Assembly: GCA_020434205.1 (NCBI GenBank)
Contig: JAGRBF010000159.1
Span: 1-43,495 of the forward strand
Direction of reading: 5' to 3'
Length of the DNA: 43,495 nucleotides
Source of the DNA: Calditrichota bacterium
GTDB lineage: Bacteria; Calditrichota; Calditrichia; RBG-13-44-9; J075
In this document: piece by piece, positions 15,187 to 41,926 of the stretch
Numbering within the stretch: the first letter of the stretch is position 1
Layout of the letters: the number at the start of each line of letters is the position of its first letter
Position numbers and translations under genes: made by a program
Notes under the pieces: model-generated
The model's database searches: none
What the model saw: the letters and a program-made list of their open reading frames with translations, nothing else
Told to the model about the DNA's origin: nothing

Positions 15187-17898
15187 TTACTCGATGAAAC
15201 GGTTTTGATAATCCACAGATTTATTCCAGAACTTTTTGAGTATTATCATACTTTTCTCACCCAGGGAATGCCCACAGCTTTTGTTTTGGCATTTCCAAAA
15301 ATCACGGTTTTGACTGAGGATCTCGCCACATTTAGGGCAGGAGGCAATTTTTTTGTCATGATGCTCTTTGCAGCAGGCATGACAATCCTGACAAACCAAC
15401 CAGTTGTTGTGACACCTTGGGCAATCACGGCTATCAATGATGTGATTGTTTTCGCCGGAACAATCCGGATTTAAGCAATGGGTAAGTCTAACAATCTCCT
15501 CGAACTGTGAGCATTCCTGGTTTGAGCACTTAAACAAAGGAACCGCATAAAAACCAACCCGTTTCGGTTCAAAGGGCTCTGGCCTGAGCAAGTTTTTACA
15601 AGCTCGACACTCCAACCGATTCAGAATTTCATTCATTCGATTGGCCCAGCCAGCATATCTGGCATAAATGCGGTGAATGTCTTTTTGGGGGTTATTGGAT
15701 GTTATAATCCCAATAGCCGGTAAAATTTCACAAAGAGTCCACTGGTGTGGTGGCAGGTCAAAGTCAGCTTCGCGGTTTGGTTTACTACAGATTCTACCCC
15801 GACACCAAAAAGAAGGATACTTTTTCTGAGTATATTCATTTCGGTCTTTATTAAAAAATGGCTCTTCCTTCCAAAAATTTCCCTCGCAGAACCCGGATGG
15901 ACACAATGGATGGTTTGAATCTTGCTCCAGCCAAAAACTTCCCCCAAAACTTACGTATTTCCCCCGATAATCATATCCAATATCACCTTTATAGAATTTT
16001 CTACCATCACATGTTTTCAACAAATTCTCAATGGTGGGTTTAAAACTTTTTAAGGATTTAATAGACACATAAAAGGAAGTGTTTAATGCGATCTTAAAGT
16101 CTTCAAAGGATTTTTCACCCGATAGTAAAATCGCCTGCAATATGGACGCATTCAATTCAGTAAACTGTATTTGCGTTAATTGATTTTTTAAATCTGCGGT
16201 GGAAAATTTTCCATGATATACCGAATAAGCCCAATACCGAATCAAATCGGCCTGATAATGCTCTGGAAGTTCCTTGAGTATGTGGTTTAATTGGGCACAG
16301 TCGTTTGCTGAAATACGCCCCAGAAAGGCCCTCCACACGACTCCTTTACCTTCTTGCGACTGCTTTCCAGCCAACCGTTCAAATGTTTCCTGAAGGTCAT
16401 GGCTGCCGGCTTCAATTTTGTCTAATTCATGGTAAAAGCTGCAATGAGGAAGAGACCTTGCCATATCTGGAAATTCAAAATCGACAAAATATTGTTCCGC
16501 ATACATTTCGTTTGGAAAGATTTGGAGCCATTTTAACCGTTCATCCCGGTCAAGTTTTGAAAAGTGGGCAAAGAGCTTTTTCTCAAAAGTTGCCAATTTA
16601 GATCTGGGAAGACTTTTGGATTGAATGGTTTGCGCAAGAATATTGAATTCCTGATGTCCGATGAGATCCAAGTTGTTTATGGTCTCAATTAGAAGATTCT
16701 CCTCGGTGATGATTTCCAATAGCGATATCAGGAGAATTGCAGGCAATTGAAAGAAAAGGGATAATTGAGAGGGTGAAACTTCAGGCAATTTGTCTACAAA
16801 ATATCTCAAATGTTCTTTTGATAGGTGTCTTGTCTCGGTTGGGTTACTGTGCAGGAATTGGAGTATCCCTGTGGTTACCCCCTGCAAATCACCATAGTTC
16901 TTTCCGTTTTTACGAAAGAAATGAAGAACAATCTCTAAGTCGCTTACCGATTGAATCTGGACCTGGTTGAGGATTATCCCCGAAATTTCAGGGTCGTTGG
17001 CAAGCTCGACCATCTTGAGTTGGACTGCTACAGGAAAATCGGACAAATCATCTAATAAAGGGTTGACAATCATTTGCCAGATTCGTTCCAGGCGATGATT
17101 GTCCTCAAATGAATTTGCCGATAAAAAAGCATCAGCAAGCAAAATTGTCTTCGAATCCCACTTGACCTCAATCAGGCATTTTTCCAGTAATTCCTGGCTG
17201 TTTAGAAACCGGCTGATAGCCAGTTGTAATGAAAAGTCTAGATTTGAAAAGGTCCTGATGATGTTAACACTGAAATTCTCCGGGACAAGGCTGGCCAATG
17301 TCTCATCCTCAATCAATTTTTGGATCAATTGTACGGAGTTGCCACTTTGCCTGAAATCCCATTTAGCCAGGAGATGGGTAACCAAACCCCGAAATGCATC
17401 AATCCTTGCCAGGTTCAACAAATCATTCGGATTAACCATCTCAAATGTATCAATCAGAATCTCATTGATACGCTCTTGCTGAGTTTGAGAAAACTGGGCA
17501 AGTAAATCGAAACGTTTTCGTTGGATAATGACCCGGCAGGAAGCTTCTAACTCTGATTGGTCAAAATCGACTTTTCTGCGAAGTAAATCTTCCAAAATGG
17601 TGAGTGCGATGGGGAAGTCCCAACAAGCAGTTAAAGTCTTTCGCCAGAGCTCTGGCCTTGATTCTGATATCAATTCAACTTTTCGACCTCTCAAACCCTC
17701 TTCGCGCTTCTCCAGTCGAAAAGAAACCGGTACCCCTTCAAAGTATTGATGGGGGTTTTGGAAGGCATCCTTCACTCGAAAAAAGACGTCTCCTTCACAA
17801 GGCTGTGTCTCCGACCTTGCCGAATGAATGAATCCGAAACCATTCTTTTCGTAATCGAGGAATTTTACCAGACCAAAACAAAGCTCTTTGTCATGCAT
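15187..17898 (-). CDS. 903-aa protein of unknown function: N-terminal cold-shock (CSD/OB) domain, long helical middle, C-terminal multi-zinc-ribbon region
   Basis: N-terminal GLVKFLDYEKNGFGFIHS matches the CspA-type GxVKWFnxxkGFGFI motif. The C-terminal ~200 aa hold about 9 CxxC/CxxH pairs (..LECRACKNL..FKCSNQECS..HCLNPDCSG..IIDSRDCPRCH..CQDCHACC..CPKCGEIL..WKCQNKSCGH), the last resembling a topoisomerase-type C4 finger. No P-loop. Paralogue of 37587..39800. Confidence 0.7.
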   Translation of the reverse strand: MHDKELCFGLVKFLDYEKNGFGFIHSARSETQPCEGDVFFRVKDAFQNPHQYFEGVPVSFRLEKREEGLRGRKVELISESRPELWRKTLTACWDFPIALTILEDLLRRKVDFDQSELEASCRVIIQRKRFDLLAQFSQTQQERINEILIDTFEMVNPNDLLNLARIDAFRGLVTHLLAKWDFRQSGNSVQLIQKLIEDETLASLVPENFSVNIIRTFSNLDFSLQLAISRFLNSQELLEKCLIEVKWDSKTILLADAFLSANSFEDNHRLERIWQMIVNPLLDDLSDFPVAVQLKMVELANDPEISGIILNQVQIQSVSDLEIVLHFFRKNGKNYGDLQGVTTGILQFLHSNPTETRHLSKEHLRYFVDKLPEVSPSQLSLFFQLPAILLISLLEIITEENLLIETINNLDLIGHQEFNILAQTIQSKSLPRSKLATFEKKLFAHFSKLDRDERLKWLQIFPNEMYAEQYFVDFEFPDMARSLPHCSFYHELDKIEAGSHDLQETFERLAGKQSQEGKGVVWRAFLGRISANDCAQLNHILKELPEHYQADLIRYWAYSVYHGKFSTADLKNQLTQIQFTELNASILQAILLSGEKSFEDFKIALNTSFYVSIKSLKSFKPTIENLLKTCDGRKFYKGDIGYDYRGKYVSFGGSFWLEQDSNHPLCPSGFCEGNFWKEEPFFNKDRNEYTQKKYPSFWCRGRICSKPNREADFDLPPHQWTLCEILPAIGIITSNNPQKDIHRIYARYAGWANRMNEILNRLECRACKNLLRPEPFEPKRVGFYAVPLFKCSNQECSQFEEIVRLTHCLNPDCSGENNHIIDSRDCPRCHNNWLVCQDCHACCKEHHDKKIASCPKCGEILSQNRDFWKCQNKSCGHSLGEKSMIILKKFWNKSVDYQNRFIE

Positions 17899-18276: not shown

Positions 18277-21099
18277 TTGTCGCTGTCACCTATTCCCATA
18301 GCCCCGGGAGCCCGGGTTCTGGTCCGCGATGCCGAATGGCTGGTGAGCCGGGTAGACCGCACCCAAAATGGAAATCAGGCCATTACCGCCATCGGTCTCT
18401 CGGAATTGGTGAAGGATAAGGAAGCTATTTTCCTGACCCATATCGACCGCGATATCAAGGTGATGGACCCGGCTAAAACCCGCATTGTCCCCGATGCCTC
18501 TCCCCAATTCCGGGAAGCCAAACTTTATATCGAAAGCCTCCTCAGGCAAACCCCACCGACAGATGAGCGCATTTACCTGGGACACCAGGCGGCCATCGAT
18601 CCGGTGCCTTATCAGCTGGATCCCGCTCACCAGGCTCTTAAACAACCGCGCCAGCGCATCCTGATCGCCGATGCGGTCGGGCTGGGGAAAACCATCGAGT
18701 TGGGCATCCTGCTCAGCGAGTTGATCGCCCGAGGCAAGGCGCGGCGTATTCTGGTGCTGGCGGTGAAAAGCATGCTGACCCAGTTTCAGAAGGAACTGTG
18801 GTGCCGGTTTACCATTCCCCTGACCCGCCTGGACTCGCTGGGCATTAAACGCATCCGCAGCCACATTCCCACCAACCACAATCCGTTTTATTATTTCGAT
18901 AAGACCATTATCTCCATAGACACGCTCAAGCAGGACAGCGAATACCGCACCTACCTGGAGAATTGTTTCTGGGACGTGATCGTCATCGACGAGGCCCACA
19001 ATGTGGCCGAACGCGGGACCCGCTCAATGCGCGCCCGTCTGGCCCGTCTGCTTGCCAGCCAGTCGGATACCCTGATCATGCTTACCGCCACCCCTCACGA
19101 CGGTCGTCCGCGCTCTTTCGCCAGCCTGATGAATATGCTCGATCCGACCGCCATCGCCGATCCCGAGCACTACGGCCCGGAGGATATCCGGGGGCTGTTC
19201 ATCCGGCGCTTCAAGAAGGACATTATTGATCAGGTGGGAGATGCTTTCCGTCAGCGTCATATTGCGGTAAAGAAAGCCCAGGCCAGTCCCGCGGAAGAGG
19301 CGGTATTTGCCTTTCTTGCCGATCTCTCTTTCGCCCGTCTGGATCAGCGCCGCGGACCGGGCCAGTTGTTCAAAACCACCCTGGAAAAGGCCCTTTTCTC
19401 AAGCCCGGCCGCCTGCCGGCAAACGATCGCCAATCGCCTGCGCCGCCTGGAAAAAGAGGAGAGTCCGGAGGCCCTTGCCGATCGGAAGCACTTGCGTGAA
19501 TTGGAGCGGTTGTTGAGCGAAATTGGTATAGGGGATTTCACCAAATATCAGGCTTTGCTGGCCGGGATTCGCGAGAATCTTCAGTGGAACGGCCGGGACA
19601 GCGAGGATCGCCTGGTTATTTTCACTGAACGCATCGAAACCCTCAAATTTTTGGATGAAAATCTGCGCAAGGACCTGGGTCTGAAGGACAAGCAAATTGC
19701 CCAGCTGCGCGGGGATATGTCGGATGTGGATCAACAGGCGGTGGTGGAGCGCTTCGGCAAGGGGGATGATCCCCTTCGTTTGCTGATTGCCAGCGACGTG
19801 GCTTCGGAAGGGATCAATCTGCACTACCAGTGCCATAAGATGATTCACTTCGATATTCCCTGGTCGCTGATGGTCTTTCAGCAGCGCAACGGACGGATCG
19901 ACCGCTACGGCCAGAAACATACCCCCTTCATCGTTTATCTGATTACCGAAAGCGGGCACAATAAAATCCGGGGAGATGTGCGCATTCTGGAACTGCTGAT
20001 TGAGAAGGACGAGCAGGCGGTGCGCAATATCGGAGACCCCTCGGCATTAATGGGAGTCTATAACATTCAGCAGGAAGAGGACATCACCGCCCGGGCTATT
20101 GAAAGCGGGGAGGGCGCCCAGGCTCTGGAAGCGGCCATGAGCAGCCCCCGCACCGCCAATATGATGGAACTGGTGATGAAAGAGGCTCAGGTTGCCCCCT
20201 CGCCGGATTCGCCCACCGGGGAGCGCTTTTCGCTCTTCGCGGATGATTACCATTACCTGAAAACAGCGCTGGGCCATCTGCAGCAAGGGGAAACCCTGCA
20301 GGTCAGCTTTGACGATGCCCGGAACACCGTTAATTTAACCCCGCCGAAGTCGCTGGCCCATCGCCTTAAACGCCTGCCCCGCGAGATGCGCCCCGACCGG
20401 GGTGAGTTTGTGCTGACCGCCGATCGCATGCAGGTTCAGGCGGCCATGGATCGGGCCCGCCGCGAGGAAAGCAGCTGGCCGGATATCCAGCTGTTGTGGT
20501 CGCTACATCCCATGCTGCTGTGGCTGAACGACACGGTGCGGGCCGCTTTCGGCCGCATGGAAGCCCCGCTGCTGCGACTTTCTTCCCTCAAGGAAGACGA
20601 ATGCTTTTTTCTGATTTCCGGGCTGTTGCCCAACCGCAAGAGCCATCCCCTGGTGTACCGCTGGTTTGGGGTGGGATTTGAATCGGGGGAATTCCGGGAA
20701 ATCCTCCCTCTGGAAGCACTGCTGGAAAAAACCGAACTGCACCGCCGGGACTTTGCCAACACCGGGGTTAATGATCCGGTCCCTGCGGAAATGCCCATCC
20801 TGCTGGAGAGAGCCCTGGAAAAAGCCCGGTCCCGGATGGAAGAAGAGCGCGTCCAATACCAAACCCAAATGCGTCCCCGGCTCAAAGACCATCTGCAGCG
20901 CCTGAGCACCCTGGAGCAAAAGCAACTGGAGCAGGCTAAAATCAATTCGGAGACGGGGAAACTCAGCCAGACCGAATACGGACGGACCCAGCGGCAAATC
21001 GCCCGGGTGTTTCAGAACCACCTCACCTGGATTGAAGACACCCTGGAAACCGGGGATACCCCTTACCTGCAGGTGGTGGCGGTGATGCTGGGACGGTAG
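18277..21099 (+). CDS. drmD: SNF2-family helicase (DISARM DrmD-like)
   Basis: TTG start with AAGGAG at 18261-18266. Motif I ADAVGLGKTIE, motif II VIVIDEAHNV (DEAH at 18988-18999), LTATPHDGR, and helicase C motifs ..LLIASDVASEGINLH.. and ..QRNGRIDRYGQ... The symbol is an analogy call, not a verified orthologue. Confidence 0.8.
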   Translation: MSLSPIPIAPGARVLVRDAEWLVSRVDRTQNGNQAITAIGLSELVKDKEAIFLTHIDRDIKVMDPAKTRIVPDASPQFREAKLYIESLLRQTPPTDERIYLGHQAAIDPVPYQLDPAHQALKQPRQRILIADAVGLGKTIELGILLSELIARGKARRILVLAVKSMLTQFQKELWCRFTIPLTRLDSLGIKRIRSHIPTNHNPFYYFDKTIISIDTLKQDSEYRTYLENCFWDVIVIDEAHNVAERGTRSMRARLARLLASQSDTLIMLTATPHDGRPRSFASLMNMLDPTAIADPEHYGPEDIRGLFIRRFKKDIIDQVGDAFRQRHIAVKKAQASPAEEAVFAFLADLSFARLDQRRGPGQLFKTTLEKALFSSPAACRQTIANRLRRLEKEESPEALADRKHLRELERLLSEIGIGDFTKYQALLAGIRENLQWNGRDSEDRLVIFTERIETLKFLDENLRKDLGLKDKQIAQLRGDMSDVDQQAVVERFGKGDDPLRLLIASDVASEGINLHYQCHKMIHFDIPWSLMVFQQRNGRIDRYGQKHTPFIVYLITESGHNKIRGDVRILELLIEKDEQAVRNIGDPSALMGVYNIQQEEDITARAIESGEGAQALEAAMSSPRTANMMELVMKEAQVAPSPDSPTGERFSLFADDYHYLKTALGHLQQGETLQVSFDDARNTVNLTPPKSLAHRLKRLPREMRPDRGEFVLTADRMQVQAAMDRARREESSWPDIQLLWSLHPMLLWLNDTVRAAFGRMEAPLLRLSSLKEDECFFLISGLLPNRKSHPLVYRWFGVGFESGEFREILPLEALLEKTELHRRDFANTGVNDPVPAEMPILLERALEKARSRMEEERVQYQTQMRPRLKDHLQRLSTLEQKQLEQAKINSETGKLSQTEYGRTQRQIARVFQNHLTWIEDTLETGDTPYLQVVAVMLGR

Positions 21100-21117
21100 G
21101 CAGGGCCACATTTTGAT

Positions 21118-21152
21118 CCCCTAACCCCCTTAAGAAGGGGGAATTAAAGGGG
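21118..21152 (+). promoter_or_regulatory. GC hairpin in the SNF2-methyltransferase intercistronic gap
   Basis: CCCCCTT-aag-AAGGGGG (21125-21141) is a perfect 7-bp stem. It is nested in an outer CCCCT/AGGGG pair (21118-21122 / 21148-21152). No downstream T-run, so it is not a classical terminator. Confidence 0.3.
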
Positions 21153-21183
21153 GTCAAAACCAGAGCAGAAACAAGGAAGGCTA

Positions 21184-24100
21184 ATGGCCATCGATCTGAG
21201 CGGTATTAACAACGAAAATGAATTTTACGCCCATCATTATCTCAGCACCTTGCTGGAGAATGACCTGAAGGGGGTAATGGCGCTCTGGAAGGAGCGCGAG
21301 GAGCAGGAGGCGGATTACATCCCGCCGGACCGGGCCTTGGGTAATCTCTATCGTCCTTATTTCCAAGCCCGTAGCCGCCTGCAAGGCCTGCGAAACCCCC
21401 TCGTTCAGCGGGAACAACAGGGAGAAATCCTGCAAACCCTGCTGGAGCTGCTGGGATTTCCCTGGCAACCTCGCGAAATCCGCCTGGAGGATGGCCTGCT
21501 CTGTCCGGTGCTGGCCACCCTGAACGACCCGGCCGGGGCCCCGCAGCTATGGGTCCTGGAAATGCCCTTTCCCGGAGAGGAAGATCAATCGCTTTTTGAG
21601 CTGGCTCTGAATGAGGGAGACACGGGGGAAGCCCCTGTGGATGGGATGCCGGGAACGGTGCTGGATTTAATCAACAGGCATATTTTTGCCCAGGAAGAAC
21701 CGCCCCGCTGGCTAATTCTGGCCGGCTTTTATCAGGTGATCCTGGTCGACCGCAGTAAATGGGCCCAGAAGCGCCACTTGCGCTTCGACCTGGCGGAAAT
21801 TCTGGGCCGCCGCGAGGCCTCCACCCTGCGGGCCACCGCCGCCCTGCTGCACCGGGACAGCATCTGCCCGGAAAGCGGGCCCAATTTGCTGGACACCCTG
21901 GACGAAAAAGCCCATAAGCACGCCTTCGCGGTTTCCGAGGACCTCAAATACGCCGCCCGGGAGGCGGTGGAGCTGTTGGGCAACGAGGTGATTTACTACC
22001 TGCGCGAGGTGCGCAAGGAGCGCATCTTCGAACGCCCCGAGCTGGCCGCCCAACTGAGCAGCGAATGCCTGCGCTACCTCTATCGCCTGCTTTTCCTTTT
22101 TTACCTGGAAGCGCGTCCCGAGCTGGGCTTTGCTCCCCTGAAAAGCGATGCCTATCGCAGCGGCTACAGCCTGGAGGCCCTGCGGGAATTGGAAATGCGT
22201 CCCCTCAACAACGAGCGGGAGCGCAACGGCTATTATCTGCACCACTCTCTGCAAACCCTCTTCGATCTGGTTTATCAGGGGGTCAATTTCGAAGTGAAGG
22301 AGGGAAAGCTGGACTTCGAGGATAATCCGCTCTCCCACGAGTTTCGCATGGCGCCCCTCAAATGCCACCTCTTCGACCCGGAGCTTACCCCGCTGCTGAA
22401 GGGGGTGAAATTCCGCAACCGGGTCCTGCAGCGGGTGGTGGAATTGCTTTCCCTCTCCCGCCCGGCCCGGTCCGGCAAACGCCGGGAACGCCGGGGGCGG
22501 ATCAGCTATGCCCAGCTGGGGATCAACCAGTTGGGGGCGGTTTACGAAGGGCTGCTCTCCTACGCCGGTTTTTTCGCCCAGGAGGACCTCTACGAGGTTA
22601 AGAAAGCCGGCACCGACCCCACCGAGTTGGAAGCAGCTTATTTTGTGCCGGGGGCGGATCTGCCCCTTTACAAGGAAGACGAAAAAATTTACAACCAGGA
22701 CGGCAGCCTGCGCAAACACCCCCGCGGCAGCTTTATCTACCGCCTTTCGGGACGCCAACGCCAGAAGTCCGCTTCCTACTACACCCCGGAGGTGCTCACC
22801 CAATGCCTGGTGAAATACGCCCTGAAGACCTTGTTAAAGGAGGAGATGAGCGCCGAGGAGATTCTCCGCTTAACGGTTTGCGAGCCGGCCATGGGCAGCG
22901 GGGCCTTCCTGAACGAGGCGGTTAACCAGCTGGCGGAGGCCTATTTGCAGCGCCGCCAGAAGGAACTGGGGGAAACCCTGGGGCCGGAGCAGTACCTGCG
23001 GGAACGCCAGAAGGTTAAGATGTATCTGGCGGATAACAACGTTTTCGGGGTGGACCTCAACCCCACCGCCATCGAGCTGGCCGAGGTGAGTTTGTGGCTA
23101 AACAGCATTTACGCCGGCAGTGAGGAGCAGGCCGCCTTTGTGCCCTGGTTCGGGATGCAGCTCAATTCCGGCAATTCCCTGATCGGAGCCCGACGGGAGG
23201 TTTTTGAGGGGCACCAGCTGGGCCGGGAGCGCCAATGGCTGAGCGCGGTGCCGCAAGCGGTTTCCCGGCAGGATTCTCCCTCGCCGACCTCGGTTTACCA
23301 CTTTCTGCTGCCGGACGAGGGCATGGCCTTTTATAACAACAATGTCATTAAAGCCATGGCCGGGGAGGCCCTCAAAAGGATGGCCGCCTGGCGCAAGGAC
23401 TTTTGTGCCCCCTTTTCGCCGGGGCAATTGAGCACCCTGCAGAGTCTTTCCCGGGTGGCTGATGAACTGTGGGCCGAGCAGGCCATCCAGCAGCAGCGCA
23501 TCCGGGAGCGCACCACCGATCCTATCGCCATTTACGGGCGACCCGCCAAAGCCGGGCGACGCCCCAGCACCACCCGGGAAAAGGACAAGATCTTCGACCA
23601 GGAAATGCACAGCAAGGGAGTGCGCAACGCCAGCCCTTACCGGCGCCTCAAGCTGGTAATGGACTACTGGTGCGCCCTGTGGTTCTGGCCCCTTGAAAAA
23701 GCGGATCTGTTGCCCAGCCGGGATGAATTCCTGCTGGAGGTAAAGCTTATCCTGGAAGGGCAAAAGGCGATGAGCGGGGTGGTTGGGGAACAAACCACCC
23801 TTTTCCCCACCACCCAACCCCAGCAGCTGGCCCTGCAGTTGCTGGACAAACACGGCTTTGTGGACCTTGCGGCGTTGCAGGACTACCCCCGCCTGCGCCT
23901 GGTGCGGGAGCTGGCCACCCGCTACCGCTTTTTCCACTGGGAGCTGGAATACGCCGACCTTTTTGCCGAACGGGGTGGGTTCGACCTGGTATTGGGGAAT
24001 CCCCCCTGGGTGAAGTTGGAATGGAGCGAAGGGGGCATTTTGGGGGACTTCGAACCCCTCTACGACATCCGCAAATTCAGCGCCTCCCGCTTAAACAAAC

Positions 24101-25881
24101 TGCGCGAGGAAACCCTGGAAAAGCACCAATTGCATGGGGCTTACCTTGGGGAATTCGAAGAAGCGGAGGGGGCCCAGAACTTTTTAAACGCCCGCCAGAA
24201 CTACCCCGCCCTGCAGGGCATGCAGTCCAACCTGTACAAATGTTTCCTGCCCCGGGCCTGGGGGATGGTTAACCAGCAGGGTGTTTCCGGCTTTGTGCAT
24301 CCGGAAGGGGTGTACGACGATCCCAAAGGGGGGGCTTTTCGGGAGCAGCTGTACCCGCGCCTCAGGTACCATTTTCAGTTTCAAAACGAGTTCGGCCTTT
24401 TTGAAGGGACTAATGATCATGGAAGGCTCAAATTTAGCTTAAACGTTTATGGAGCGGTTAAATCGGAAGGTGATTTTACAAATATTTCCTGGCTCTTTCA
24501 TCCTAAAACCATTGATGAGTGTTTTCAGAAACAAGTTTCTTATAAGGTTGAAGGGATTAAGAATTCTGATAATCAATGGAATATTGTTGGTCATCCGGAC
24601 CGCTTGGTACCTGTTAATAGTAACACCCTCGCTCTCTTCGCCAAACTCTACGACCCGCCCGGCACCCCGGCCGTGCAGGCCCGCTTGCCGGTGGTGCATT
24701 CCCGGCAGGTGCTGGCGGTGCTGGAGAAATTTGCCGCTCAGGAACGGCGCCTGGGGGATCTGGTTGGAGAATACACGGCCACGGTTATGTGGGATGAAAC
24801 CAATGCCCAAAAGGCGGGGATTATCCGGCGGGAGACCCGCTTTCCTGAACATCCCGGTGAGTGGATTGTCTCCGGCCCTCATTTTTACGTGGGCAATCCC
24901 TTCAACAAAACTCCCCGGGAGGCGTGCACCCAGAATTCCCATTACGATGTCCTCGATCTCACCGAGCTCCCTCCGGACTACCTGCCCCGCACCAACTATG
25001 TGCCGGCGGCTCCCCCGGCCGTTTACCAGCAGCGCACCCCCAAAGTGCCCTGGGGGGACAACAGGGGGGTGACGGAGTATTATAGATTGGCTTTTAGAAA
25101 AATGTTGAGTCAATCAGGCGAGAGGACAATGATCCCAGCTATTTTGCCCCGATATTGTGGTCACGTTGATGGTACCTTTAGCTTGGTTTTTAAAGACAAC
25201 TCAATGCTCATCTCCGCATTTTCTCTTTTTAGTTCATTATCCTTTGACTTTTTTTTGAAAACGACTGGCAAAGCCAATTTTAGAAATGAACTAGCAGTTT
25301 TACTACCAATTGTAGAAAGTGAATATGCCAAACAAATGACTTTGCGGTCGTTATTGCTTCATTGTTTGTCGCAAAGCTATACCGAACTTTGGAAAGGAAT
25401 ATGGGAACAAAATCTAACAAAAGATTTCTGGACCAAACCCGACCCGCGCCTGGACAACGCCCACTTCGCCAATCTCACCCCGGAATGGACCCCGGCAATC
25501 CCCCTGCGCAGCGACTACGCCCGCCGCCAGGCCCTGGTGGAAATCGACGTGCTGGCCGCCAAAGCCCTGGGACTTACCCTGGAGGAGCTGTGCGCCATCT
25601 ACCGCATTCAATTCCCGGTGCTGCGCCAGAACGAAAACGATACCTGGTACGACCGCAAGGGGCGCATTGTCTTTACCTGCTCCAAAGGGCTGCCCGGGGT
25701 GGGCTTCAGCCGTCCGGAATGGAATGACATTAAGGACCTGCAAAGCGGGACTGTGGAGCGCACTGTAAGCGATCACACCCGCCCCGGACCGCCCCGGGAA
25801 TGCACCATCGTCTACCAGGCCCCCTTCGATCGCTGCGACCGGGAAGCCGACTATGCCACCGCCTGGGAGGCCTTTTCATGA
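21184..25881 (+). CDS. drmMI: Large (1565 aa) gamma-class N6-adenine DNA methyltransferase, Eco57I/PglX/DrmMI-like
   Basis: SAM motif I CEPAMGSGAFLNEA (about 22881-22910). Catalytic motif IV VLGNPPWVK (NPPW about 23998-24009). No nuclease motif seen. The stop overlaps the next start (ATGA at 25878-25881). Symbol by analogy. Confidence 0.85.
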   Translation: MAIDLSGINNENEFYAHHYLSTLLENDLKGVMALWKEREEQEADYIPPDRALGNLYRPYFQARSRLQGLRNPLVQREQQGEILQTLLELLGFPWQPREIRLEDGLLCPVLATLNDPAGAPQLWVLEMPFPGEEDQSLFELALNEGDTGEAPVDGMPGTVLDLINRHIFAQEEPPRWLILAGFYQVILVDRSKWAQKRHLRFDLAEILGRREASTLRATAALLHRDSICPESGPNLLDTLDEKAHKHAFAVSEDLKYAAREAVELLGNEVIYYLREVRKERIFERPELAAQLSSECLRYLYRLLFLFYLEARPELGFAPLKSDAYRSGYSLEALRELEMRPLNNERERNGYYLHHSLQTLFDLVYQGVNFEVKEGKLDFEDNPLSHEFRMAPLKCHLFDPELTPLLKGVKFRNRVLQRVVELLSLSRPARSGKRRERRGRISYAQLGINQLGAVYEGLLSYAGFFAQEDLYEVKKAGTDPTELEAAYFVPGADLPLYKEDEKIYNQDGSLRKHPRGSFIYRLSGRQRQKSASYYTPEVLTQCLVKYALKTLLKEEMSAEEILRLTVCEPAMGSGAFLNEAVNQLAEAYLQRRQKELGETLGPEQYLRERQKVKMYLADNNVFGVDLNPTAIELAEVSLWLNSIYAGSEEQAAFVPWFGMQLNSGNSLIGARREVFEGHQLGRERQWLSAVPQAVSRQDSPSPTSVYHFLLPDEGMAFYNNNVIKAMAGEALKRMAAWRKDFCAPFSPGQLSTLQSLSRVADELWAEQAIQQQRIRERTTDPIAIYGRPAKAGRRPSTTREKDKIFDQEMHSKGVRNASPYRRLKLVMDYWCALWFWPLEKADLLPSRDEFLLEVKLILEGQKAMSGVVGEQTTLFPTTQPQQLALQLLDKHGFVDLAALQDYPRLRLVRELATRYRFFHWELEYADLFAERGGFDLVLGNPPWVKLEWSEGGILGDFEPLYDIRKFSASRLNKLREETLEKHQLHGAYLGEFEEAEGAQNFLNARQNYPALQGMQSNLYKCFLPRAWGMVNQQGVSGFVHPEGVYDDPKGGAFREQLYPRLRYHFQFQNEFGLFEGTNDHGRLKFSLNVYGAVKSEGDFTNISWLFHPKTIDECFQKQVSYKVEGIKNSDNQWNIVGHPDRLVPVNSNTLALFAKLYDPPGTPAVQARLPVVHSRQVLAVLEKFAAQERRLGDLVGEYTATVMWDETNAQKAGIIRRETRFPEHPGEWIVSGPHFYVGNPFNKTPREACTQNSHYDVLDLTELPPDYLPRTNYVPAAPPAVYQQRTPKVPWGDNRGVTEYYRLAFRKMLSQSGERTMIPAILPRYCGHVDGTFSLVFKDNSMLISAFSLFSSLSFDFFLKTTGKANFRNELAVLLPIVESEYAKQMTLRSLLLHCLSQSYTELWKGIWEQNLTKDFWTKPDPRLDNAHFANLTPEWTPAIPLRSDYARRQALVEIDVLAAKALGLTLEELCAIYRIQFPVLRQNENDTWYDRKGRIVFTCSKGLPGVGFSRPEWNDIKDLQSGTVERTVSDHTRPGPPRECTIVYQAPFDRCDREADYATAWEAFS

Positions 25882-28800
25882 TCCCCGCCATTCTCAGCCG
25901 TCAGGTGCGCCAGGGCATCCGGGATTTCCTGCTCACCACCTTCCCGGTTTCTACCCCGCTTTTCCGGGAAACCCTGCCACAACTGCTGGAGGATGAGGAG
26001 GCCCTCTTTAAGGGACCCTATCTTTCCCTCAAACGCCCCTTCCGGGCCGCGGCGGATGCCGGCCAGCCCTTCACCGGGTTTGAGCCCGGTTTTACCGCCC
26101 ACCGCCACCAGGCCCGGGCCTTTGCCCGCCTGAATGGCGAGGCTCCCCGCTCCACCCTCATCGCCACAGGGACCGGCTCCGGGAAAACGGAGAGCTTTCT
26201 TTTCCCGGTTCTGGAGCATTGTTACCGAAATCGCGAAAAAGGGGGCATTAAGGCCATCCTCATTTATCCCATGAACGCCCTGGCCAACGACCAGGCCCGC
26301 CGCCTGGCGCGTTTTGTGCACCGGGAACCCCGGCTGCGCGGAAGCCTGCGGGCCGGCCTTTACATCGGCGGCAAGGGGGAGCGCAGCAACAAGGAAATGA
26401 CCGCGGAGAATGTGATCACCGATCGTTTTCGTCTGCGCGACCAGCCCCCGGATATTTTGCTCACCAACTACAAGATGTTGGACTACCTGCTGGTGCGTCC
26501 CGGAGACCAGGCCCTGTGGCGGCACAATGCTCCGGAAACCCTGCAATATCTGGTGGTAGACGAATTGCACACCTTCGACGGGGCCCAGGGTACCGATCTG
26601 GCCTGCCTGCTTCGTCGACTCAAGCAGCGCCTTAAAACCCCCGCCGGACATCTGTGTTGCGTGGGCACCTCCGCCACCCTCGGTGGGGAAAAAGAGGCCT
26701 CGCGGCTGCTGGATTACGCCCGGGATATTTTTGGGGAGCCTTTCGATGGGCAGGCGATTATCAATGAGGATTTGCTGAGTAGCGCCGAATTCCTGGCCGG
26801 CAGCCCCATTCGCTACCGGGAGATACCCGATGCCGCCGGGGGACTTTTGCCCGGGGAGGCCCATACCCCCTACGCTTATCTGGCCGATCAGTACCGGCTG
26901 TGGTTTGGAGAAGAGGCCCCCGCAGCCCCGGAGGAACTGGCAACGGCATTGCCGCAAAAACTGCGCGAGCACCAGTTCCTGCGCTACCTGCTCAACATTC
27001 TGGAGAAGGGACCCCGTCCGGTGGGCGAAATCGGGGCGGAGCTATCCCTGCTGGTGCCGGAATTTGGGGCGGCATCCCCGCAGGAGCGGGCCAAGCTGCT
27101 GGACAGCTTTGTGGCGCTCATCTCCGCCGCCCGGATAAACAATGGGCAAGGCCAGCTTCCCTTCCTGGAGGTCCGCTACCAACTGTGGCTGCGGGAGCTG
27201 CGGCGTATGGTGGTTTCGGTTGCCCAAAGGCCGCAAATGGCCTTCTCAGACGATCTGGATCAGGACGCCCTGGCGGGTCACCTCCCGGTGGTGCACTGCC
27301 GGGAATGCGGGGCCATGGGTTGGGGAGCTCTGAAACGCCAGCAGGACACCCGCTTTTCCCCGGACCTGCAGCGCTTCTACCAATCTTTTTTTGCGGGCGG
27401 ACCCACCCTGCACTTTGTCTTTCCGGTTCAGCATAGCGAAGGGCGGGGGCAGGGCATTTGCGGTCACTGCCTGCACCATTACCAGGGGAGCCCCCAAAAC
27501 TGTCCCGCCTGCGGCAAAGCCGACCGGCTCATAGCCGCGGAGGTCTTTAACGAACGCCGCACCCGCAATAACCGCGTTTATGTGGATAAACACTGTCCTT
27601 ATTGCCAGGCGCACGACGGGCTTACCATTCTGGGCTCCCGGGCCGCCAGTCTGATCAGCGTGGCCATCAGTCAACTGTTTGCCTCGCCCTTCAACGACGA
27701 CAAAAAACTCCTCACCTTTTCCGATTCGGTTCAGGATGCCGCCCACCGGGCCGGTTTCTTTGGGGCCCGCACCTTTCGCTTCAACTTTCGCGCCGCCCTC
27801 CAGCAATGTTTGCAGGATCAGGAACAGCCGCCTTCCCTGGCCGCCATGCCCGGGGTTTTCGAGCAGTATTGGTCCCGGCGCCTGGATGGAAATGCCTATC
27901 TCAGCACCTTTTTTCCGCCGGATCTGCACTACCGCGAGGATTACGGATACCTGCGGCAACACGGAAAGCTGCCCAGGGGATCGGAACTACCGGAGCTGCT
28001 GCGGCAGCGCCTTTCCTGGGAAGTTAATTCCGAATACGGCTACCGGGCCCGGGTGGGGCGCACCCTGGAGAAGAGCGGGGCTTCGATAGCCCTGCCCGAT
28101 CCGCAGCGCCTGCAAAAAGCGCTTGAGAACCTGCTGCCCATGTTGCGCGAAGAAATTGGGGGCCTGCGGGAGCTGGACCAGACCGCCCTGGCGCGCCTCA
28201 TCGGTGGATTTATTGCCCAGTTGCGCGTAAAAGGAGGTGTTTTTCATCCCGGCCTGGAAAGCTATATCCGGGAGGGCGCCAATACCTTTATGCTGCGGCG
28301 TGTTCCTTACATGCCGCCGTTTGCGCCAGGGGGGCGCACCCCGGTTTTCCTGAGCCAGATCCCCTTTGGTTACGAACGCTTCGACGTGCTGTTGCGCGCC
28401 GGCAGCGTTACCTGGCACAGCCAGTGGGCGGTCAAAAATTTACTGCCCTTCGGCCAGCAGTTCGATCCGTTTATGGGGGATATCTACCGGTTATTGCTCC
28501 GGGAATTGGTTGCCCGGGAAATATTGCAGGAAGAGACGGTGCATGGGGTATCCGTCTGGGGACTGCGCGGGGAGGCCCTCCAACTGACCACTGCGGTGCG
28601 GCAACTGCGCTGCGACACCTGTGGGCACGACATGTCCGCCGCCACCGGGGAAGACCATTGGGTAGGAATGCCCTGTCTGCGTTTTAACTGCAGGGGGCAT
28701 TATCAGGCGGAGCCTTCCGGCGAGGACTACTATCGCCGCCTTTACAGCACCGGGGATATTCAGCGTATCTTTGCCGAGGAGCACACCGGGCTGCTGGGCC

Positions 28801-31800
28801 GTGAGGAACGCGAGGAATTGGAGCAGCACTTCGAGCAGCAGAACCATCCCTGGGATCCCAATCTGCTCTCCTGCACCCCAACCCTGGAGATGGGGGTGGA
28901 TATCGGAGCGCTTTCCTCGCTGGTGCTCTGTTCGGTGCCGCCCCGCCAGGCCAACTACCTGCAGCGCATCGGCCGGGCCGGTCGGCGGGATGGCAATAGC
29001 TTTATCCTGACTGTCGCCAATGGCGATCCCCACGATCTCTATTTCTACCAGCAGCCGGAAGAAATGATGGCCGGTGCGGTGGAGCCCCCGGGCGTTTTCC
29101 TGAATGCCCCGGCAGTCCTGGAACGCCAGTTTATCGCCTTCACCTTCGAAAGATTCATCCTGGCCGGCGTCCCGACCCCCGCCTTGCCGGCTAAAATCCG
29201 TCCGGTGCTCAACAGGTGGGAGAAGGAAGAACCGGGTAATTTCCCCTACAACTGGCTGGCCTTTTGCGAATCCTCGCAGGGAATTTTGCTTACTGACTTT
29301 TTCAACCTCTTTCAGGATGCCCTGGACGAGACGGCCAGAAAACACCTTTCTCAGTTTGTAAAAACCGACCGCCGTGAGGGCCTGCAATCCAGTATTAAAG
29401 CCGCTTTTGCCGATGCCGCGGAGGAGATCCGGGTGCATCGCCAGCGGGTTCAGCAACTCAACCGGAAAATCCGGGAAATGGAAAACAGTCCGGTTCGGGA
29501 CCAAAACTACGATGCCAATCTCAACGAACTAAAACGCGAAAAGCAGGCCCTTAACGGGATTATCAACAAAATTGCCGATAAGGACCTGTTTAGCTTTCTC
29601 AGTGAAGAAGGACTGCTGCCCAATTACGCTTTTCCCGAGCCGGGGGTGCAACTGCGTTCGGTTATCTATCGGAAAAAGAGACGCGCCGATGCGGAGGGCG
29701 CCTATCAGGTGAGCGTCTACGAATACGAGCGCCCCGGGGCCAGCGCCATTCGCGAGCTTGCCCCCGAGAATCAGTTCTACGCCGGGGGGCGCCGGGTGAG
29801 CGTGGATCAGATAAATCTCCAGCTTTCCCCGGAGGAATTCTGGCGGTTTTGCGACAATTGCAGCCACATGGCCCGGGATCTGGGCGGGGAAGTATCGCCC
29901 ACCTGTCCCACCTGTGGGAGCGAAAGGTGGTCCGACCACAATCAGGTCCGTTCCCTGATTCGCATGAAGCAGGTGATGGCCAATACCAGCGACCGGGAAA
30001 GCCGTATCGGGGACGACAGCGACGATCGAAGCCCTGCCCACTATCACAATCATTTGGTGGTCGAAATCGGCAGGGACAAAGTTGCCAGCGCCTTTCACAT
30101 TCCCGGCGACCAGGTGCCCTTCGGATTCGAATACATCTCCCGTTTCACCCTTCGCGAGATCAACTTCGGCCATCGCGAGCAAGCCGGCAACCCGATCCGC
30201 ATTGCCGGGCAGGATACCGGGATCAACGGCTTTCAGGTTTGCCGGGCCTGCGGAAAAGTCCGAAAAGCCGGGGACGCCGAAGGCCGCTGGCACGCCTTCG
30301 GTTGCCGTTATCGCGGCTTAACCGACGACGATTCTACCCTGAGCGGGTTTTACCTCTACCGCGAATTTCAGTCCGAAGCCCTGCGCATTCTGGCCCCGGC
30401 CCTGCTGAGAGAGGATTCCGGTTCGGTGGTCAACTCGCTGCGCGCAGCCCTTTTCCTGGGGCTTCGGGAGCATTTCCGGGGAGACATCGAGCACCTGCAG
30501 ATCGCCCAGCAGTTTGAACCCTACGATGGCCCGGATTTTCAGCGCCATTACCTGGTGCTCTACGACCGCGTTCCCGGGGGAACCGGCTATCTTAAGGAAT
30601 TAATGCGTGATAATTACCCCCTCCTGGATGTGCTGCAAAAAGGGCTGGATAAACTCAAGGCCTGTCCCCGATGCAGCCGTGCTGACGGTCCGGACGGCTG
30701 TTACCAATGTATTTACGCCTATCGTTTTAGCCGCGATATGGCCAATATCTCGCGGCAAAGCGCCATTAACCTGCTCACCGAGATTCTCCGGAACCGCCAT
30801 CAGGTTGGTCCCATCGAAACGGTTGATACCATTTCCCTGAACAACCTTTTGGAAAGCGAACTGGAAAAGCGTTTTGTGGACGGCCTGGCCCGCCTGGCCC
30901 TGGAAAAGGACAATATCCGCCTGGAGAAAGAGATCGTCAATGGCAAGCACGGTTGGCGGCTGCAGGTCGGAGAATCCGTCTATCGCATGGAACCCCAGGT
31001 AAATCTGGGGCCGGAGCAAGGGGTGTCCGAGCGCTGCCGGGCAGACTTTGTGCTTTACCCGATTAAACAAACGCCCGGAAAGCCGGTGGTGCTCTTTACC
31101 GACGGCTTTGCCTATCACGCCGGGGAAACACAGCTAAACCGCCGCCTGGGAGCGGATATGCGTCAGCGTATGGCCATTGTGGACAGCAAAGCCTTCCGGG
31201 TGTGGTCGCTAACCTGGCAGGACCTCGAAAAACTGGAAACCCGCCATCCGGAACATTTTGAGAACCTGCTTAAATCGCCTCCCCACCAGCTTTTTCAGGT
31301 TTACAGTAACCAACCGGGTCGACAAGAACATCAGCGCTTGCTCCAGCTGGGCTCCATGGATCTTCTGATCGCCCATCTGGAAAAGCCTCAGGCCGGGTAT
31401 TGGCTGGCGGTTGCGCACCTGGCCGTTCTGGGCATGGTGGTGGCGGAAGGTTTGGTGAACATCAGTAAGGACACCTATCGCAAGGCTTTGCAAGAGGCCG
31501 TGGCCGCTCCGCTTGATGAGCAAAAGCTGGACGTCCCTTTAGCCGAAGAGGGAGGCACTTTACTGGGCTGCCGCTGGGTGTTCTCGGGAGAGCAGGAGGG
31601 GGCAACCGTGCTGTTTATGGTGATCAGTCAGAACGATGACATCGTTACCTCGGGTGGGAAAGGCATTCGGCTGCTGGTGCGCCTCTTAGACGAAAAGCCC
31701 ATGCCCCGCGAAAAGTTCCGGCGCCTCTGGAATGGTTATCTGCAGGCCTTCAACCTGCTGCAGTTTTTGCCGGGAGCGCGATTCCTCGCCAGTGAAGGGC

Positions 31801-32165
31801 TTCGTAGCGCCGGGGATCCCGTGGTGGATGAATGGTTGTTTGCCGAGATTGAACCGCAACAGGATGCCCCGCAAATTGAACCCGCCTGGGCGGAGATTCT
31901 GGCCGTCAGCGAACCGGCCTGGCAGGGGGCAATTGAGCAACTCAGCGGCATGTCCGTCCCCCTGCCCATCTGCGGCTACGAACTCATGAACACCGGTGGG
32001 GCGGTTTGCGCTCAGGCTTTCCTGGCCTGGGAAAACGACATGATTGCCATTCTGGCGCCAGATGAAATGGATGGAAAACACCTTTTTGAAGAAGCCGGCT
32101 GGCAGGTTTTTGCTATCGACGCTCTGGTGAGAGATCCGGCAATGCTGTCAGGCCTTTTCAAATAA
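25878..32165 (+). CDS. 2095-aa DEAD/DEAH-box helicase fused to a DUF1998 zinc module and C-terminal Vsr/DUF559-like domains (DrmA+DrmB fusion-like, or DruE-like)
   Basis: Start set to ATG 25878 (MIPAILSRQ..; the ORF track's upstream extension overlaps the methyltransferase). Walker A ATGTGSGKTE (26163-26189), DELH (26559-26570), SATLG, ..TPTLEMGVDIG.. and ..QRIGRAGRR... DUF1998-type Cys clusters FCDNCSH..CPTCGS, CRACGKV, YLVLYDRVPGGTGYL and CPRCSRADGPDGCYQC (about 29840-30710). Confidence 0.85.
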   Translation: MIPAILSRQVRQGIRDFLLTTFPVSTPLFRETLPQLLEDEEALFKGPYLSLKRPFRAAADAGQPFTGFEPGFTAHRHQARAFARLNGEAPRSTLIATGTGSGKTESFLFPVLEHCYRNREKGGIKAILIYPMNALANDQARRLARFVHREPRLRGSLRAGLYIGGKGERSNKEMTAENVITDRFRLRDQPPDILLTNYKMLDYLLVRPGDQALWRHNAPETLQYLVVDELHTFDGAQGTDLACLLRRLKQRLKTPAGHLCCVGTSATLGGEKEASRLLDYARDIFGEPFDGQAIINEDLLSSAEFLAGSPIRYREIPDAAGGLLPGEAHTPYAYLADQYRLWFGEEAPAAPEELATALPQKLREHQFLRYLLNILEKGPRPVGEIGAELSLLVPEFGAASPQERAKLLDSFVALISAARINNGQGQLPFLEVRYQLWLRELRRMVVSVAQRPQMAFSDDLDQDALAGHLPVVHCRECGAMGWGALKRQQDTRFSPDLQRFYQSFFAGGPTLHFVFPVQHSEGRGQGICGHCLHHYQGSPQNCPACGKADRLIAAEVFNERRTRNNRVYVDKHCPYCQAHDGLTILGSRAASLISVAISQLFASPFNDDKKLLTFSDSVQDAAHRAGFFGARTFRFNFRAALQQCLQDQEQPPSLAAMPGVFEQYWSRRLDGNAYLSTFFPPDLHYREDYGYLRQHGKLPRGSELPELLRQRLSWEVNSEYGYRARVGRTLEKSGASIALPDPQRLQKALENLLPMLREEIGGLRELDQTALARLIGGFIAQLRVKGGVFHPGLESYIREGANTFMLRRVPYMPPFAPGGRTPVFLSQIPFGYERFDVLLRAGSVTWHSQWAVKNLLPFGQQFDPFMGDIYRLLLRELVAREILQEETVHGVSVWGLRGEALQLTTAVRQLRCDTCGHDMSAATGEDHWVGMPCLRFNCRGHYQAEPSGEDYYRRLYSTGDIQRIFAEEHTGLLGREEREELEQHFEQQNHPWDPNLLSCTPTLEMGVDIGALSSLVLCSVPPRQANYLQRIGRAGRRDGNSFILTVANGDPHDLYFYQQPEEMMAGAVEPPGVFLNAPAVLERQFIAFTFERFILAGVPTPALPAKIRPVLNRWEKEEPGNFPYNWLAFCESSQGILLTDFFNLFQDALDETARKHLSQFVKTDRREGLQSSIKAAFADAAEEIRVHRQRVQQLNRKIREMENSPVRDQNYDANLNELKREKQALNGIINKIADKDLFSFLSEEGLLPNYAFPEPGVQLRSVIYRKKRRADAEGAYQVSVYEYERPGASAIRELAPENQFYAGGRRVSVDQINLQLSPEEFWRFCDNCSHMARDLGGEVSPTCPTCGSERWSDHNQVRSLIRMKQVMANTSDRESRIGDDSDDRSPAHYHNHLVVEIGRDKVASAFHIPGDQVPFGFEYISRFTLREINFGHREQAGNPIRIAGQDTGINGFQVCRACGKVRKAGDAEGRWHAFGCRYRGLTDDDSTLSGFYLYREFQSEALRILAPALLREDSGSVVNSLRAALFLGLREHFRGDIEHLQIAQQFEPYDGPDFQRHYLVLYDRVPGGTGYLKELMRDNYPLLDVLQKGLDKLKACPRCSRADGPDGCYQCIYAYRFSRDMANISRQSAINLLTEILRNRHQVGPIETVDTISLNNLLESELEKRFVDGLARLALEKDNIRLEKEIVNGKHGWRLQVGESVYRMEPQVNLGPEQGVSERCRADFVLYPIKQTPGKPVVLFTDGFAYHAGETQLNRRLGADMRQRMAIVDSKAFRVWSLTWQDLEKLETRHPEHFENLLKSPPHQLFQVYSNQPGRQEHQRLLQLGSMDLLIAHLEKPQAGYWLAVAHLAVLGMVVAEGLVNISKDTYRKALQEAVAAPLDEQKLDVPLAEEGGTLLGCRWVFSGEQEGATVLFMVISQNDDIVTSGGKGIRLLVRLLDEKPMPREKFRRLWNGYLQAFNLLQFLPGARFLASEGLRSAGDPVVDEWLFAEIEPQQDAPQIEPAWAEILAVSEPAWQGAIEQLSGMSVPLPICGYELMNTGGAVCAQAFLAWENDMIAILAPDEMDGKHLFEEAGWQVFAIDALVRDPAMLSGLFK

Positions 32166-41912: not shown

Positions 41913-41926
41913 GTACCCTCTTACCC

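Follow-up and report, generated by a model that had tools for sequence, protein, structure and literature searches.

Two AT-rich, hypervariable and probably exchangeable cassettes in the methyltransferase gene of a predicted ARMADA type II operon from a Calditrichota bacterium

ARMADA defence systems were described only in 2025-26. Type II of these systems was defined in bioRxiv 10.1101/2025.09.15.676423 and studied in Escherichia coli O157:H7 in PMC13463889. In the ARMADA II system of E. coli NCTC 12900, the mutation N971A abolished defence (bioRxiv 10.1101/2025.09.15.676423), and the diversity of the E. coli islands was mostly due to the armB gene (PMC13463889). Keyword searches of these two papers gave no localisation of the armB variation, no description of two cassettes, no statement on composition, and neither a recognition motif nor a self/non-self rule for ARMADA. 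Here we analyzed a stretch of 43,495 nucleotides from a Calditrichota bacterium (hereafter, the window), which carried a predicted ARMADA II operon, and the variability of armB could now be placed in two short segments of this methyltransferase gene. We considered it likely that these segments were swappable hypervariable cassettes of ArmB that were exchanged by recombination and probably served as specificity modules.

The operon occupied a GC-rich block of the window (about 18.2-34.3 kb) and consisted of four co-oriented genes in the order armA-armB-armC-armD. Their products followed the ARMADA II gene order, namely an SNF2 helicase, a PglX-like methyltransferase, a YprA-like helicase with DUF1998, and a GajB/UvrD-like helicase. 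When the operon was compared by tblastn with the locus of Escherichia sp. E1V33 (L032), all four proteins had near full-length, syntenic matches: 50% identity for ArmA (residues 9-939) to the gene upstream of armB, 48% for ArmB over its full length, 39% for ArmC (residues 18-2103) to the gene downstream of armB, and 48% for ArmD (residues 14-712) to the gene after armC. The armB backbone of Escherichia sp. E1V33 had 98-99% identity with the E. coli alleles, that of O157:H7 Sakai among them, and the NPPW motif of our ArmB aligned with N971 of the Sakai protein. Judging from these alignments, armB and its neighbors form an ARMADA type II operon with a predicted defence function. Moreover, the E. 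coli armB alleles had the same two AT-rich hypervariable segments at aligned positions. The loci differed in that ArmB had less than half of its residues in common with the E. coli type and in that the host belonged to the Calditrichia, where the operon was a GC-rich island. Namely, the GC content at third codon positions (GC3) was 0.64-0.71 in the operon versus 0.43-0.54 in its flanks, the host being a Calditrichia metagenome-assembled genome (MAG) with about 44% GC; therefore, the operon was considered a horizontally acquired island. The RelE-like N-terminus of the E. coli ArmD and the vsr/EEP domains of the E. coli ArmC were not confirmed in the Calditrichia operon. The alignments to the E. 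coli-type proteins covered the end of ArmC and the start of ArmD; ArmD had only the UvrD domains in Pfam, starting from residue 250, and ArmC had no named nuclease domain in Pfam and a weak HNH-like PADLOC match at residues 2021-2111.

The armB open reading frame had 1565 codons and a mean GC3 of 0.71. Maximum-likelihood segmentation of GC3 along this frame, with sliding windows used besides, produced four change points at codons 1072, 1147, 1299, and 1415 (nucleotides 24397, 24622, 25078, and 25426). From 5' to 3', the GC3 of the resulting segments was 0.76, 0.28, 0.75, 0.33, and 0.79. Relative to a model with uniform GC3, the log-likelihood rose by about 76. A first-pass annotation, made from the sequence alone, had delimited two AT-rich patches at 24365-24635 and 25075-25435, and its limits were within about 30 nucleotides of our boundaries. 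Plotted along the gene, GC3 had two sharp troughs (0.28 and 0.33 versus 0.75-0.80), and the switch in composition at the patch edges was only a few codons wide. The synonymous switch that had been noted for Arg and Leu codons was borne out by the counts. Namely, CTG encoded none of the 23 Leu residues inside the patches versus 100 of 174 in the remainder of armB, and AGA/AGG encoded 5 of 8 Arg residues versus 4 of 110. A similar difference was found for Lys (AAA in 11 of 13 cases inside the patches versus 27 of 55 outside), and the GC content of the first codon positions was lower in the patches too. With both patches pooled, GC3 was 0.31 and the overall GC content was 0.36. The idea that the patches drop to the composition of the host background had to be abandoned, since their GC3 was significantly below the value of 0.47 for the eleven flanking low-GC genes (binomial p = 1e-5). 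In armA, armC, and armD, every 60-codon window had a GC3 of at least 0.52.

As the first-pass annotation had stated, the armB frame was unbroken and both patches were located downstream of the catalytic NPPW motif. The patches aligned residue for residue with the homologs (70-75 of 75 residues in patch 1 and 112-116 of 116 in patch 2), and therefore they were not insertions. We gave almost no credence to an embedded foreign element or an overlapping feature, such as an insertion, an intein, an antisense gene, an internal promoter, or an RNA gene. There were three promoter-like matches versus 1.3 +/- 1.2 expected and an antisense open reading frame at 24439-25113, but the segments were colinear with the homologs and had no added length, and the antisense frame lay mostly over the GC-rich DNA between the patches. 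Searches for RNA genes in Rfam returned nothing meaningful, terminators were absent, and the promoter-like matches did not significantly exceed the expected number. A conserved stretch, Y-Y-R..F-R-K-MLSQSGERT, lay at the 5' end of patch 2, and its family-conserved part MLSQSGERT was encoded as ATG TTG AGT CAA TCA GGC GAG AGG ACA. For such AT-rich coding of conserved motifs inside a patch, an imported tract is a better explanation than an effect of the amino acids.

Since the window came from a MAG, the mosaic might also be an assembly chimera of co-occurring armB alleles joined at shared anchors. An independent deposit, contig DAOMBE010000141.1 of GCA_035427185.1 (L081), was 100% identical to positions 19482-25400 of the window. 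This contig ended at 25400, 25 nucleotides before the 3' edge of patch 2, and this end may mark a branch in the assembly graph, due to different cassette variants that occur side by side in the population. However, the contig crossed three of the four composition boundaries without a mismatch, the reading frame and the colinearity were perfect, and the same backbone and cassette composition was found in closed E. coli chromosomes. Thus, a chimera was very improbable, and the available contigs indicate that the armB sequence is real and not an assembly artefact.

The nearest relative of the whole armB gene was only 64% identical, besides the identical partial copy from a similar MAG, and because of this distance the exchange was demonstrated on close pairs elsewhere in the family. 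We used the 120 best database homologs, took residues 500-1050 as the backbone, and considered cassettes to differ when they were less than 70% identical. There were 69 pairs with a backbone identity of at least 85%. Both patches differed in 50 of these pairs, 12 pairs shared patch 1 only, six shared patch 2 only, and one pair shared both. Single-linkage clustering of the 120 homologs at 70% produced 80 types of patch 1 and 98 types of patch 2, and there were 18 types of the backbone and one type of the C-terminal part. A good example was a pair of metagenomic homologs (P0012 and P0035, with the loci L086 and L087), for which the protein identity was 0.96 in the backbone, 0.99 in patch 1, 0.36 in patch 2, and 0.95 in the C-terminus. 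At the DNA level, the two loci were 94-100% identical up to about residue 1160, except for two windows near residues 990-1050 (84-88%); the identity was 38-52% across residues 1290-1380 and 90-99% again from residue 1408. By this alignment, patch 2 has been cleanly replaced. Shared cassettes were also present on divergent backbones, as in the pair P0050 and P0092, where the identity was 0.66 in the backbone, 0.90 in patch 1, and 0.80 in patch 2.

The same pattern was found in E. coli, where armB matched 526 complete genomes in broken pieces. Nine E. coli-type alleles had 94-99% DNA identity over residues 1-950 and from residue 1417 to the end, while the identity was lower at the equivalents of the patches (48-63% for patch 1, 44-60% for patch 2), the inter-patch segment being in between. 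Among these alleles, L088 of strain JL05 and L032 of Escherichia sp. E1V33 were 100% alike in patch 1 and 48% alike in patch 2, L094 of strain H9 and L095 of strain 13C1065T were 100% alike in patch 1 and 57% in patch 2, and L089 from the EC22 plasmid and L091 of CFSAN061761 were 99% alike in patch 2 and 52% in patch 1. In the closed E. coli genomes, the GC3 of the cassettes was 0.24-0.43 versus 0.63-0.69 in the backbone. These comparisons indicate that the two cassettes assort independently among close relatives and that ArmB is, on the evidence of the alignments, a conserved scaffold with two cassettes bracketed by conserved sequence. At the level of the family, the reading of armB as a mosaic of recombining cassettes was strongly supported.

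Two of the E. coli alleles had additional features. In E. coli strain 2D (L096), the divergent block (equivalent to residues ~951-1416) had a GC3 of 0.23-0.29. Compared with the other alleles, its start was shifted by about 100 codons in the upstream direction, and it entered the end of the methyltransferase core; therefore, the exchange tracts did not always end at the same anchors. In E. coli O145 strain RM8988-C1 (L090), the annotation of armB was that of a pseudogene, frameshifted and split, and an IS3 (insertion sequence) transposase lay just downstream. This was a case of ARMADA decay in an enterohaemorrhagic E. coli lineage.

These data are consistent with the following scenario. A GC-rich ARMADA operon would have been acquired horizontally by a lower-GC Calditrichia genome. 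The cassettes would be replaced independently by homologous recombination in the conserved anchors that bracket them, and repeated replacement would lead to near-identical backbones with cassettes of many deeply diverged types. Such a separate history may have given the cassettes their own, AT-shifted composition. For our armB, the scenario would include a fairly recent import of both cassettes or, alternatively, a GC-rich allele that recently overwrote the backbone and the inter-patch segment. Because 456 nucleotides of backbone-like DNA separated the patches, no fewer than two exchanges would be needed in this gene. Allelic replacement was favored over in-situ shuffling, since the window contained neither silent cassettes nor inverted repeats, nor any further copy of the patches; for the same reason, phase-variable and shufflon-type mechanisms were rejected. 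As for the function, the cassettes may set the methylated (self) motif, so that a swap would redefine both the self and the DNA or phages to be attacked, and phage pressure could maintain the diversity of the cassettes.

In order to see how general the composition of the patches was, we computed GC3 per aligned segment in 58 genes, which were our armB and 57 full-length homologs with available DNA (53 from GTDB species representatives and four from the closest metagenomic relatives; 40-64% identity). GC3 was below that of the backbone for patch 1 in 57 of the 58 genes, for the inter-patch segment in all 58, and for patch 2 in 55. The mean offsets were -0.20, -0.16, and -0.22, respectively (Wilcoxon p about 1e-11), and the AT shift extended across hosts with a backbone GC3 from 0.17 (Arcobacter) to 0.93. 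GC-rich homologs carried the same patches, an outcome that the first-pass annotation had named as a sign of local constraint instead of recombination; for instance, L009 had a GC3 of 0.92, 0.83, 0.89, 0.69, and 0.92 in the five consecutive segments. When the GC3 of the patches was regressed on that of the backbone, the slope was 0.63-0.76 and the intercept was about 0. Thus, the cassettes tracked the host composition yet were AT-richer at every GC level. The protein identity to our ArmB was about 28-48% in the patches, ~43-64% in the N-terminal part, and 46-81% in the C-terminal domain (53-79% in 51 of the 53 homologs). Low conservation as the cause of the AT-richness was rejected, since the equally divergent N-terminal region at residues 31-165 had no GC3 shift. 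Low values extended over the entire block in L082, which was the closest relative from the Calditrichota (GC3 of 0.79, 0.26, 0.38, 0.28, and 0.81).

The first-pass annotation had explained the mosaic by recombination with a low-GC homolog. The mosaic itself and the exchange of these segments, which was seen among close relatives, have stood; the single low-GC donor has not. According to this explanation, one recent event brought in both patches and their composition was that of the donor, which we regarded as possible but rather unlikely. The sharp, tract-like boundaries and the AT-rich codons of the conserved motifs inside the patches agreed with it. In addition, the patch offsets of our armB (-0.50 and -0.46) were the second and third most extreme of the 58 genes and its inter-patch offset (-0.03) was the second smallest shift, so that the gene had the look of a recent, unameliorated import with a backbone-like middle. 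However, the backbone-like gap demanded two exchanges, or one exchange and a reconversion, and the same segments were AT-shifted in nearly every homolog and at every host GC level. Moreover, searches with each patch and its short flanks as separate queries, for which very few candidates shared any words, found no such donor among 5.8 billion proteins, and no donor taxon could be named. Taken as a whole, the earlier interpretation was partly supported.

A local constraint or bias would explain the patches without any import, in which case the compositional contrast would be uninformative on recombination. Candidates for such a bias were slow or rare codons needed for folding, an amino-acid or context effect, and a lack of GC-biased gene conversion. 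It was supported by the AT shift in 55-58 of the 58 genes across the entire range of backbone GC3, with an intercept of about 0 and slopes of 0.63-0.97, as well as by the shift of the moderately conserved inter-patch segment in every gene. On the other hand, cassette exchange was directly visible in close relatives, the poorly conserved residues 31-165 lacked the shift, and the inter-patch segment of our armB was not shifted. Therefore, as an explanation on its own, the local bias was somewhat less likely than the single donor, and it was probably a factor contributing on top of the exchange rather than an alternative to it. A related view, to which we gave the same tentative weight, was that AT-richness is a systematic property of the cassettes that is independent of the host (~0.63-0.76 of the backbone GC3, from Arcobacter-like hosts to those with 68% GC). 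In that case, diverged alleles would be unable to recombine internally and so would escape the GC-biased conversion and homogenisation of the backbone; another cause could be selection that favors AT-rich codons in the recognition domain. Compared with their hosts, mobile or accessory genes as a pool are shifted towards AT, and recombination-linked GC-biased conversion requires alleles that are similar enough to recombine. Each of these two ideas would predict the observed shift.

The structural models were consistent with a role of the cassettes in target recognition. ArmB had motif I (EPAMGSGAF), motif IV (NPPW), and then a post-catalytic region, which is the order of a gamma-class N6-adenine methyltransferase. 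AlphaFold models were built on the 120-sequence alignment and compared with the PDB using Foldseek. The model of residues 500-1565 (1066 residues) had a predicted local distance difference test score (pLDDT) of 89 and a predicted template modeling score (pTM) of 0.86; PglX/BrxX was its best match (E 1e-12), and the next ones were CamA, M.TaqI, and M.BseCI (E 1e-9 to 1e-10). The model of residues 1040-1565 (pLDDT 93, pTM 0.93) matched M.BseCI, CamA, PglX/BrxX, and BpuSI (E from about 5e-7 to 3e-3, the latter for BpuSI), and its match to MmeI was weaker (E ~0.02). The enzymes with matching folds were gamma-class adenine methyltransferases with a target recognition domain in the C-terminal half. 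The predicted domain order of ArmB, which was the catalytic core, patch 1, the scaffold, patch 2, and the conserved C-terminal domain, fits a two-module recognition plan, in which the cassettes would form the surface that contacts the DNA and recognizes the target. The hypervariability of such a surface might also come from the evasion of phage anti-defence proteins and not from a change of motif. Indeed, Ocr contacts residues of the BrxX recognition domain (PMC11842806), and the cassette types were very numerous (80 and 98 among 120 sequences). However, variation in this region was tied to motif changes in the PglX/BrxX and MmeI enzymes (PMC11842806, PMC11341690), and the binding of Ocr was described as independent of the variable recognition site. 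Thus, evasion as the main cause seemed improbable, although both pressures are compatible.

Several observations spoke against exchangeable specificity cassettes in armB. The AT shift persisted in hosts of very low GC with a regression intercept near 0, which would not be expected if import from a mixed or low-GC pool were the only process. Namely, cassettes from a mixed pool should exceed the GC of the backbone in low-GC hosts, which was not seen; foreign origin alone is therefore insufficient, and some systematic bias acting locally must be involved as well. For neither cassette of our armB did the donor search find a close relative (at best 44% identity for patch 1 and 40% for patch 2), and consequently the import into this particular gene was not demonstrable. 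Patch 1 kept the invariant residues K1126, G1136, H1137, and R1140, and therefore not all of it was free to vary. Sequence searches with phmmer and the 120-sequence profile reached no relative of ArmB in the PDB. Finally, bioRxiv 10.1101/2025.09.15.676423 and PMC13463889 gave no methylation motif for any ArmB allele, and a literature search for the methylation motif of the E. coli ArmB (ECs5262/Z5900) returned nothing relevant.

The natural cassette variants of E. coli provide an experimental handle on whether ArmB is the specificity factor and on how its two modules divide the task of recognition. More generally, a GC3 trough within a gene can flag specificity modules from raw sequence alone, and if the AT-richness of the cassettes is systematic, then GC3 troughs in otherwise uniform defence genes would be an annotation-free marker of specificity modules under balancing selection, and ArmB would be a two-module reader whose halves could be re-paired to obtain new specificities. 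The coordinates of the operon genes and of the armB features are collected in Table 1.

Table 1. Genes of the predicted ARMADA type II operon and features of armB (positions in the window)
Feature	Position	Strand	Basis or remark
armA, SNF2/RapA-like (BrxHII/DrmD-like) helicase, 940 aa	18277..21099	+	Pfam SNF2-rel_dom, Helicase_C, ResIII
armB, PglX-like N6-adenine DNA methyltransferase, 1565 aa	21184..25881	+	Pfam Eco57I, N6_Mtase
S-adenosylmethionine (SAM)-binding motif I EPAMGSGAF, aa 567-575	22882..22908	+	inside the Pfam matches to N6_Mtase and MmeI_Mtase
Catalytic motif IV NPPW, aa 939-942	23998..24009	+	sequence motif, 5' of both patches
Anchor YPRLRYHFQFQNE directly 5' of cassette 1	24352..24390	+	nearly invariant in 120 homologs
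Patch (cassette) 1, codons 1072-1146, GC3 0.28, hypervariable	24397..24621	+	GC3 segmentation
Inter-patch scaffold, codons 1147-1298, GC3 0.75	24622..25077	+	moderately conserved, at most 76% identity
LFAKLYD, conserved sequence 3' of patch 1	24634-24654	+	homolog conservation
Patch (cassette) 2, codons 1299-1414, GC3 0.33	25078..25425	+	segment with the highest variability in the family
Conserved C-terminal domain, codons 1415-1564, GC3 0.79	25426..25878	+	best-conserved part of armB
DPRLDN, conserved, just past patch 2	25441-25458	+	homolog conservation
armC, YprA-family DEAD/DExH helicase with MZB/DUF1998; putative nuclease-like region at the C-terminus	25878..32165	+	Pfam DEAD, Helicase_C, MZB
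armD, UvrD/GajB-like helicase, 712 aa	32195..34333	+	Pfam UvrD-helicase, UvrD_C; PADLOC GajB

The operon genes were also recognized by models of other defence systems. ArmA matched the PADLOC model of DrmD (E=2.6e-101), and ArmB matched PDLC03614 from end to end (E=4.8e-281). A PADLOC model with the name REase_MTase_IIG matched ArmB end to end, and there was no Pfam nuclease domain in its residues 1-500. For ArmC (2121 residues), the best PADLOC models were those of DruE (E=1.5e-101), in agreement with the report that the YprA homologs of ARMADA are closest to Druantia (bioRxiv 10.1101/2025.09.15.676423). The longest open reading frame of armC started at 25800 and overlapped armB by 82 nucleotides (25800-25881). 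An ATG at 25878 formed an ATGA overlap with the armB stop and was preceded by GGGAGG. This ATG was likely to be the armC start rather than 25800, because the alignment to the E. coli-type protein begins at residue 18 of the long frame.

Here, armB and armC abutted, and in related loci the spacer between them held varied cargo. The cargo was of several kinds, namely DUF559 with GmrSD, PLD with a RelB/PIN toxin-antitoxin pair, and DUF4160 with DUF2442, and it was present in L082 (8239-17708), L085 (8761-10777), L086 (6634-7409), and L087 (5983-6773). In L082, there was also an IS66 transposase between armA and armB.

Two large paralogs flanked the ARMADA operon, one on each side (15187-17898 and 37587-39800, both on the minus strand). 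They had an N-terminal cold-shock-like domain and a common Cys-rich, zinc-ribbon-like C-terminal region (30% identity over 246 residues, E=2e-24), and the former had a weak match to the effector model of retron Se72. These paralogs could be defence genes or markers of an insertion hotspot. The AT-rich flank further contained, all on the minus strand, an AAA_15/AAA_21 ATPase with DUF3696 (9570-11375), an open reading frame of 330 residues (12285-13277), an HNH protein (13278-14018), and a PLD-domain protein (14110-15108). Because of the defence-like genes in this flank (9570-15108), the window was considered a defence island that extends beyond ARMADA. Directly after armD, there was an open reading frame of 496 residues (34427-35917, plus strand; GC 0.48) with no match in Pfam, PADLOC, or NCBIfam. 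Blocks of raised GC (0.51-0.59) at ~6500-9000 and 40500-43495 in the background of ~44% GC suggest further horizontally acquired segments.

Among other known systems, class 1 DISARM was similar to the ARMADA operon in having an SNF2 helicase, a large adenine methyltransferase, and a helicase with DUF1998, and the PADLOC models of DrmD and DrmMI matched ArmA and ArmB. However, the match between ArmB and DrmMI was local (E=1.3e-52 over ~150 residues), and the ARMADA operon had an extra UvrD-like helicase. Class 1 DISARM consists of DrmD, DrmMI, DrmA, DrmB, and DrmC, where DrmA and DrmB are separate proteins and DrmC is a PLD nuclease. An assignment to this class was rejected, since the helicase and MZB/DUF1998 parts were fused in one open reading frame and the operon had no PLD gene; the PLD gene at 14110-15108 was on the opposite strand in the AT-rich flank.

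The type III mod genes (modA) of Neisseria and Haemophilus resembled armB in their hypervariable central domain with conserved flanks and horizontal exchange (PMC3311624). In the modA12 alleles, the GC content of the recognition domain was significantly below that of the flanks, which was read as horizontal transfer (PMC3311624). A literature search on low-GC recognition domains in general returned this modA paper only (PMC3311624). In contrast to ArmB, the modA product is a beta-class methyltransferase with one variable domain instead of two, and modA is phase-variable via repeats, none of which were present at armB.

In the HsdS subunit of Type I systems, two target recognition domains (TRD1 and TRD2) are separated by a central conserved region and followed by a distal conserved region; the conserved parts are the recombination anchors, and the modules assort independently. 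ArmB was alike in having two variable modules, conserved separators and flanks, and independent assortment. Unlike ArmB, HsdS forms a subunit of its own and its fold is duplicated, and its structures matched ArmB non-significantly (E 0.14-0.33). In addition, there were no invertible or silent cassettes near armB.

The PglX/BrxX proteins of BREX and the type IIL enzymes of the MmeI family are gamma-class adenine methyltransferases whose target recognition domain is C-terminal. PglX/BrxX had the same arrangement of a methyltransferase core, a variable region, and a conserved C-terminal domain. The BrxX recognition domain is the part of this protein that varies most, consists of two alpha/beta subdomains, and sets a 6-bp motif (PMC11842806). 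A direct assignment of ArmB to BREX was rejected, because the NCBIfam models BREX_1/2/6_MTaseX gave 27-32 bits versus cut-offs of 400-900 and matched the SAM-binding region only; ArmB was thus PglX-like in fold and not a PglX. Moreover, its variable region (~370 residues) was about twice as long as that of PglX/BrxX and comprised two cassettes, each exchanged separately, on either side of a conserved scaffold. It is already well known from the methyltransferases of Type I, Type III, and BREX systems that variable, lower-GC recognition domains undergo exchange by recombination. Thus, the finding for ArmB is an extension of a known principle to ARMADA and not a new mechanism, and its useful specifics are the two independently assorting cassettes with defined anchors in a single methyltransferase gene.

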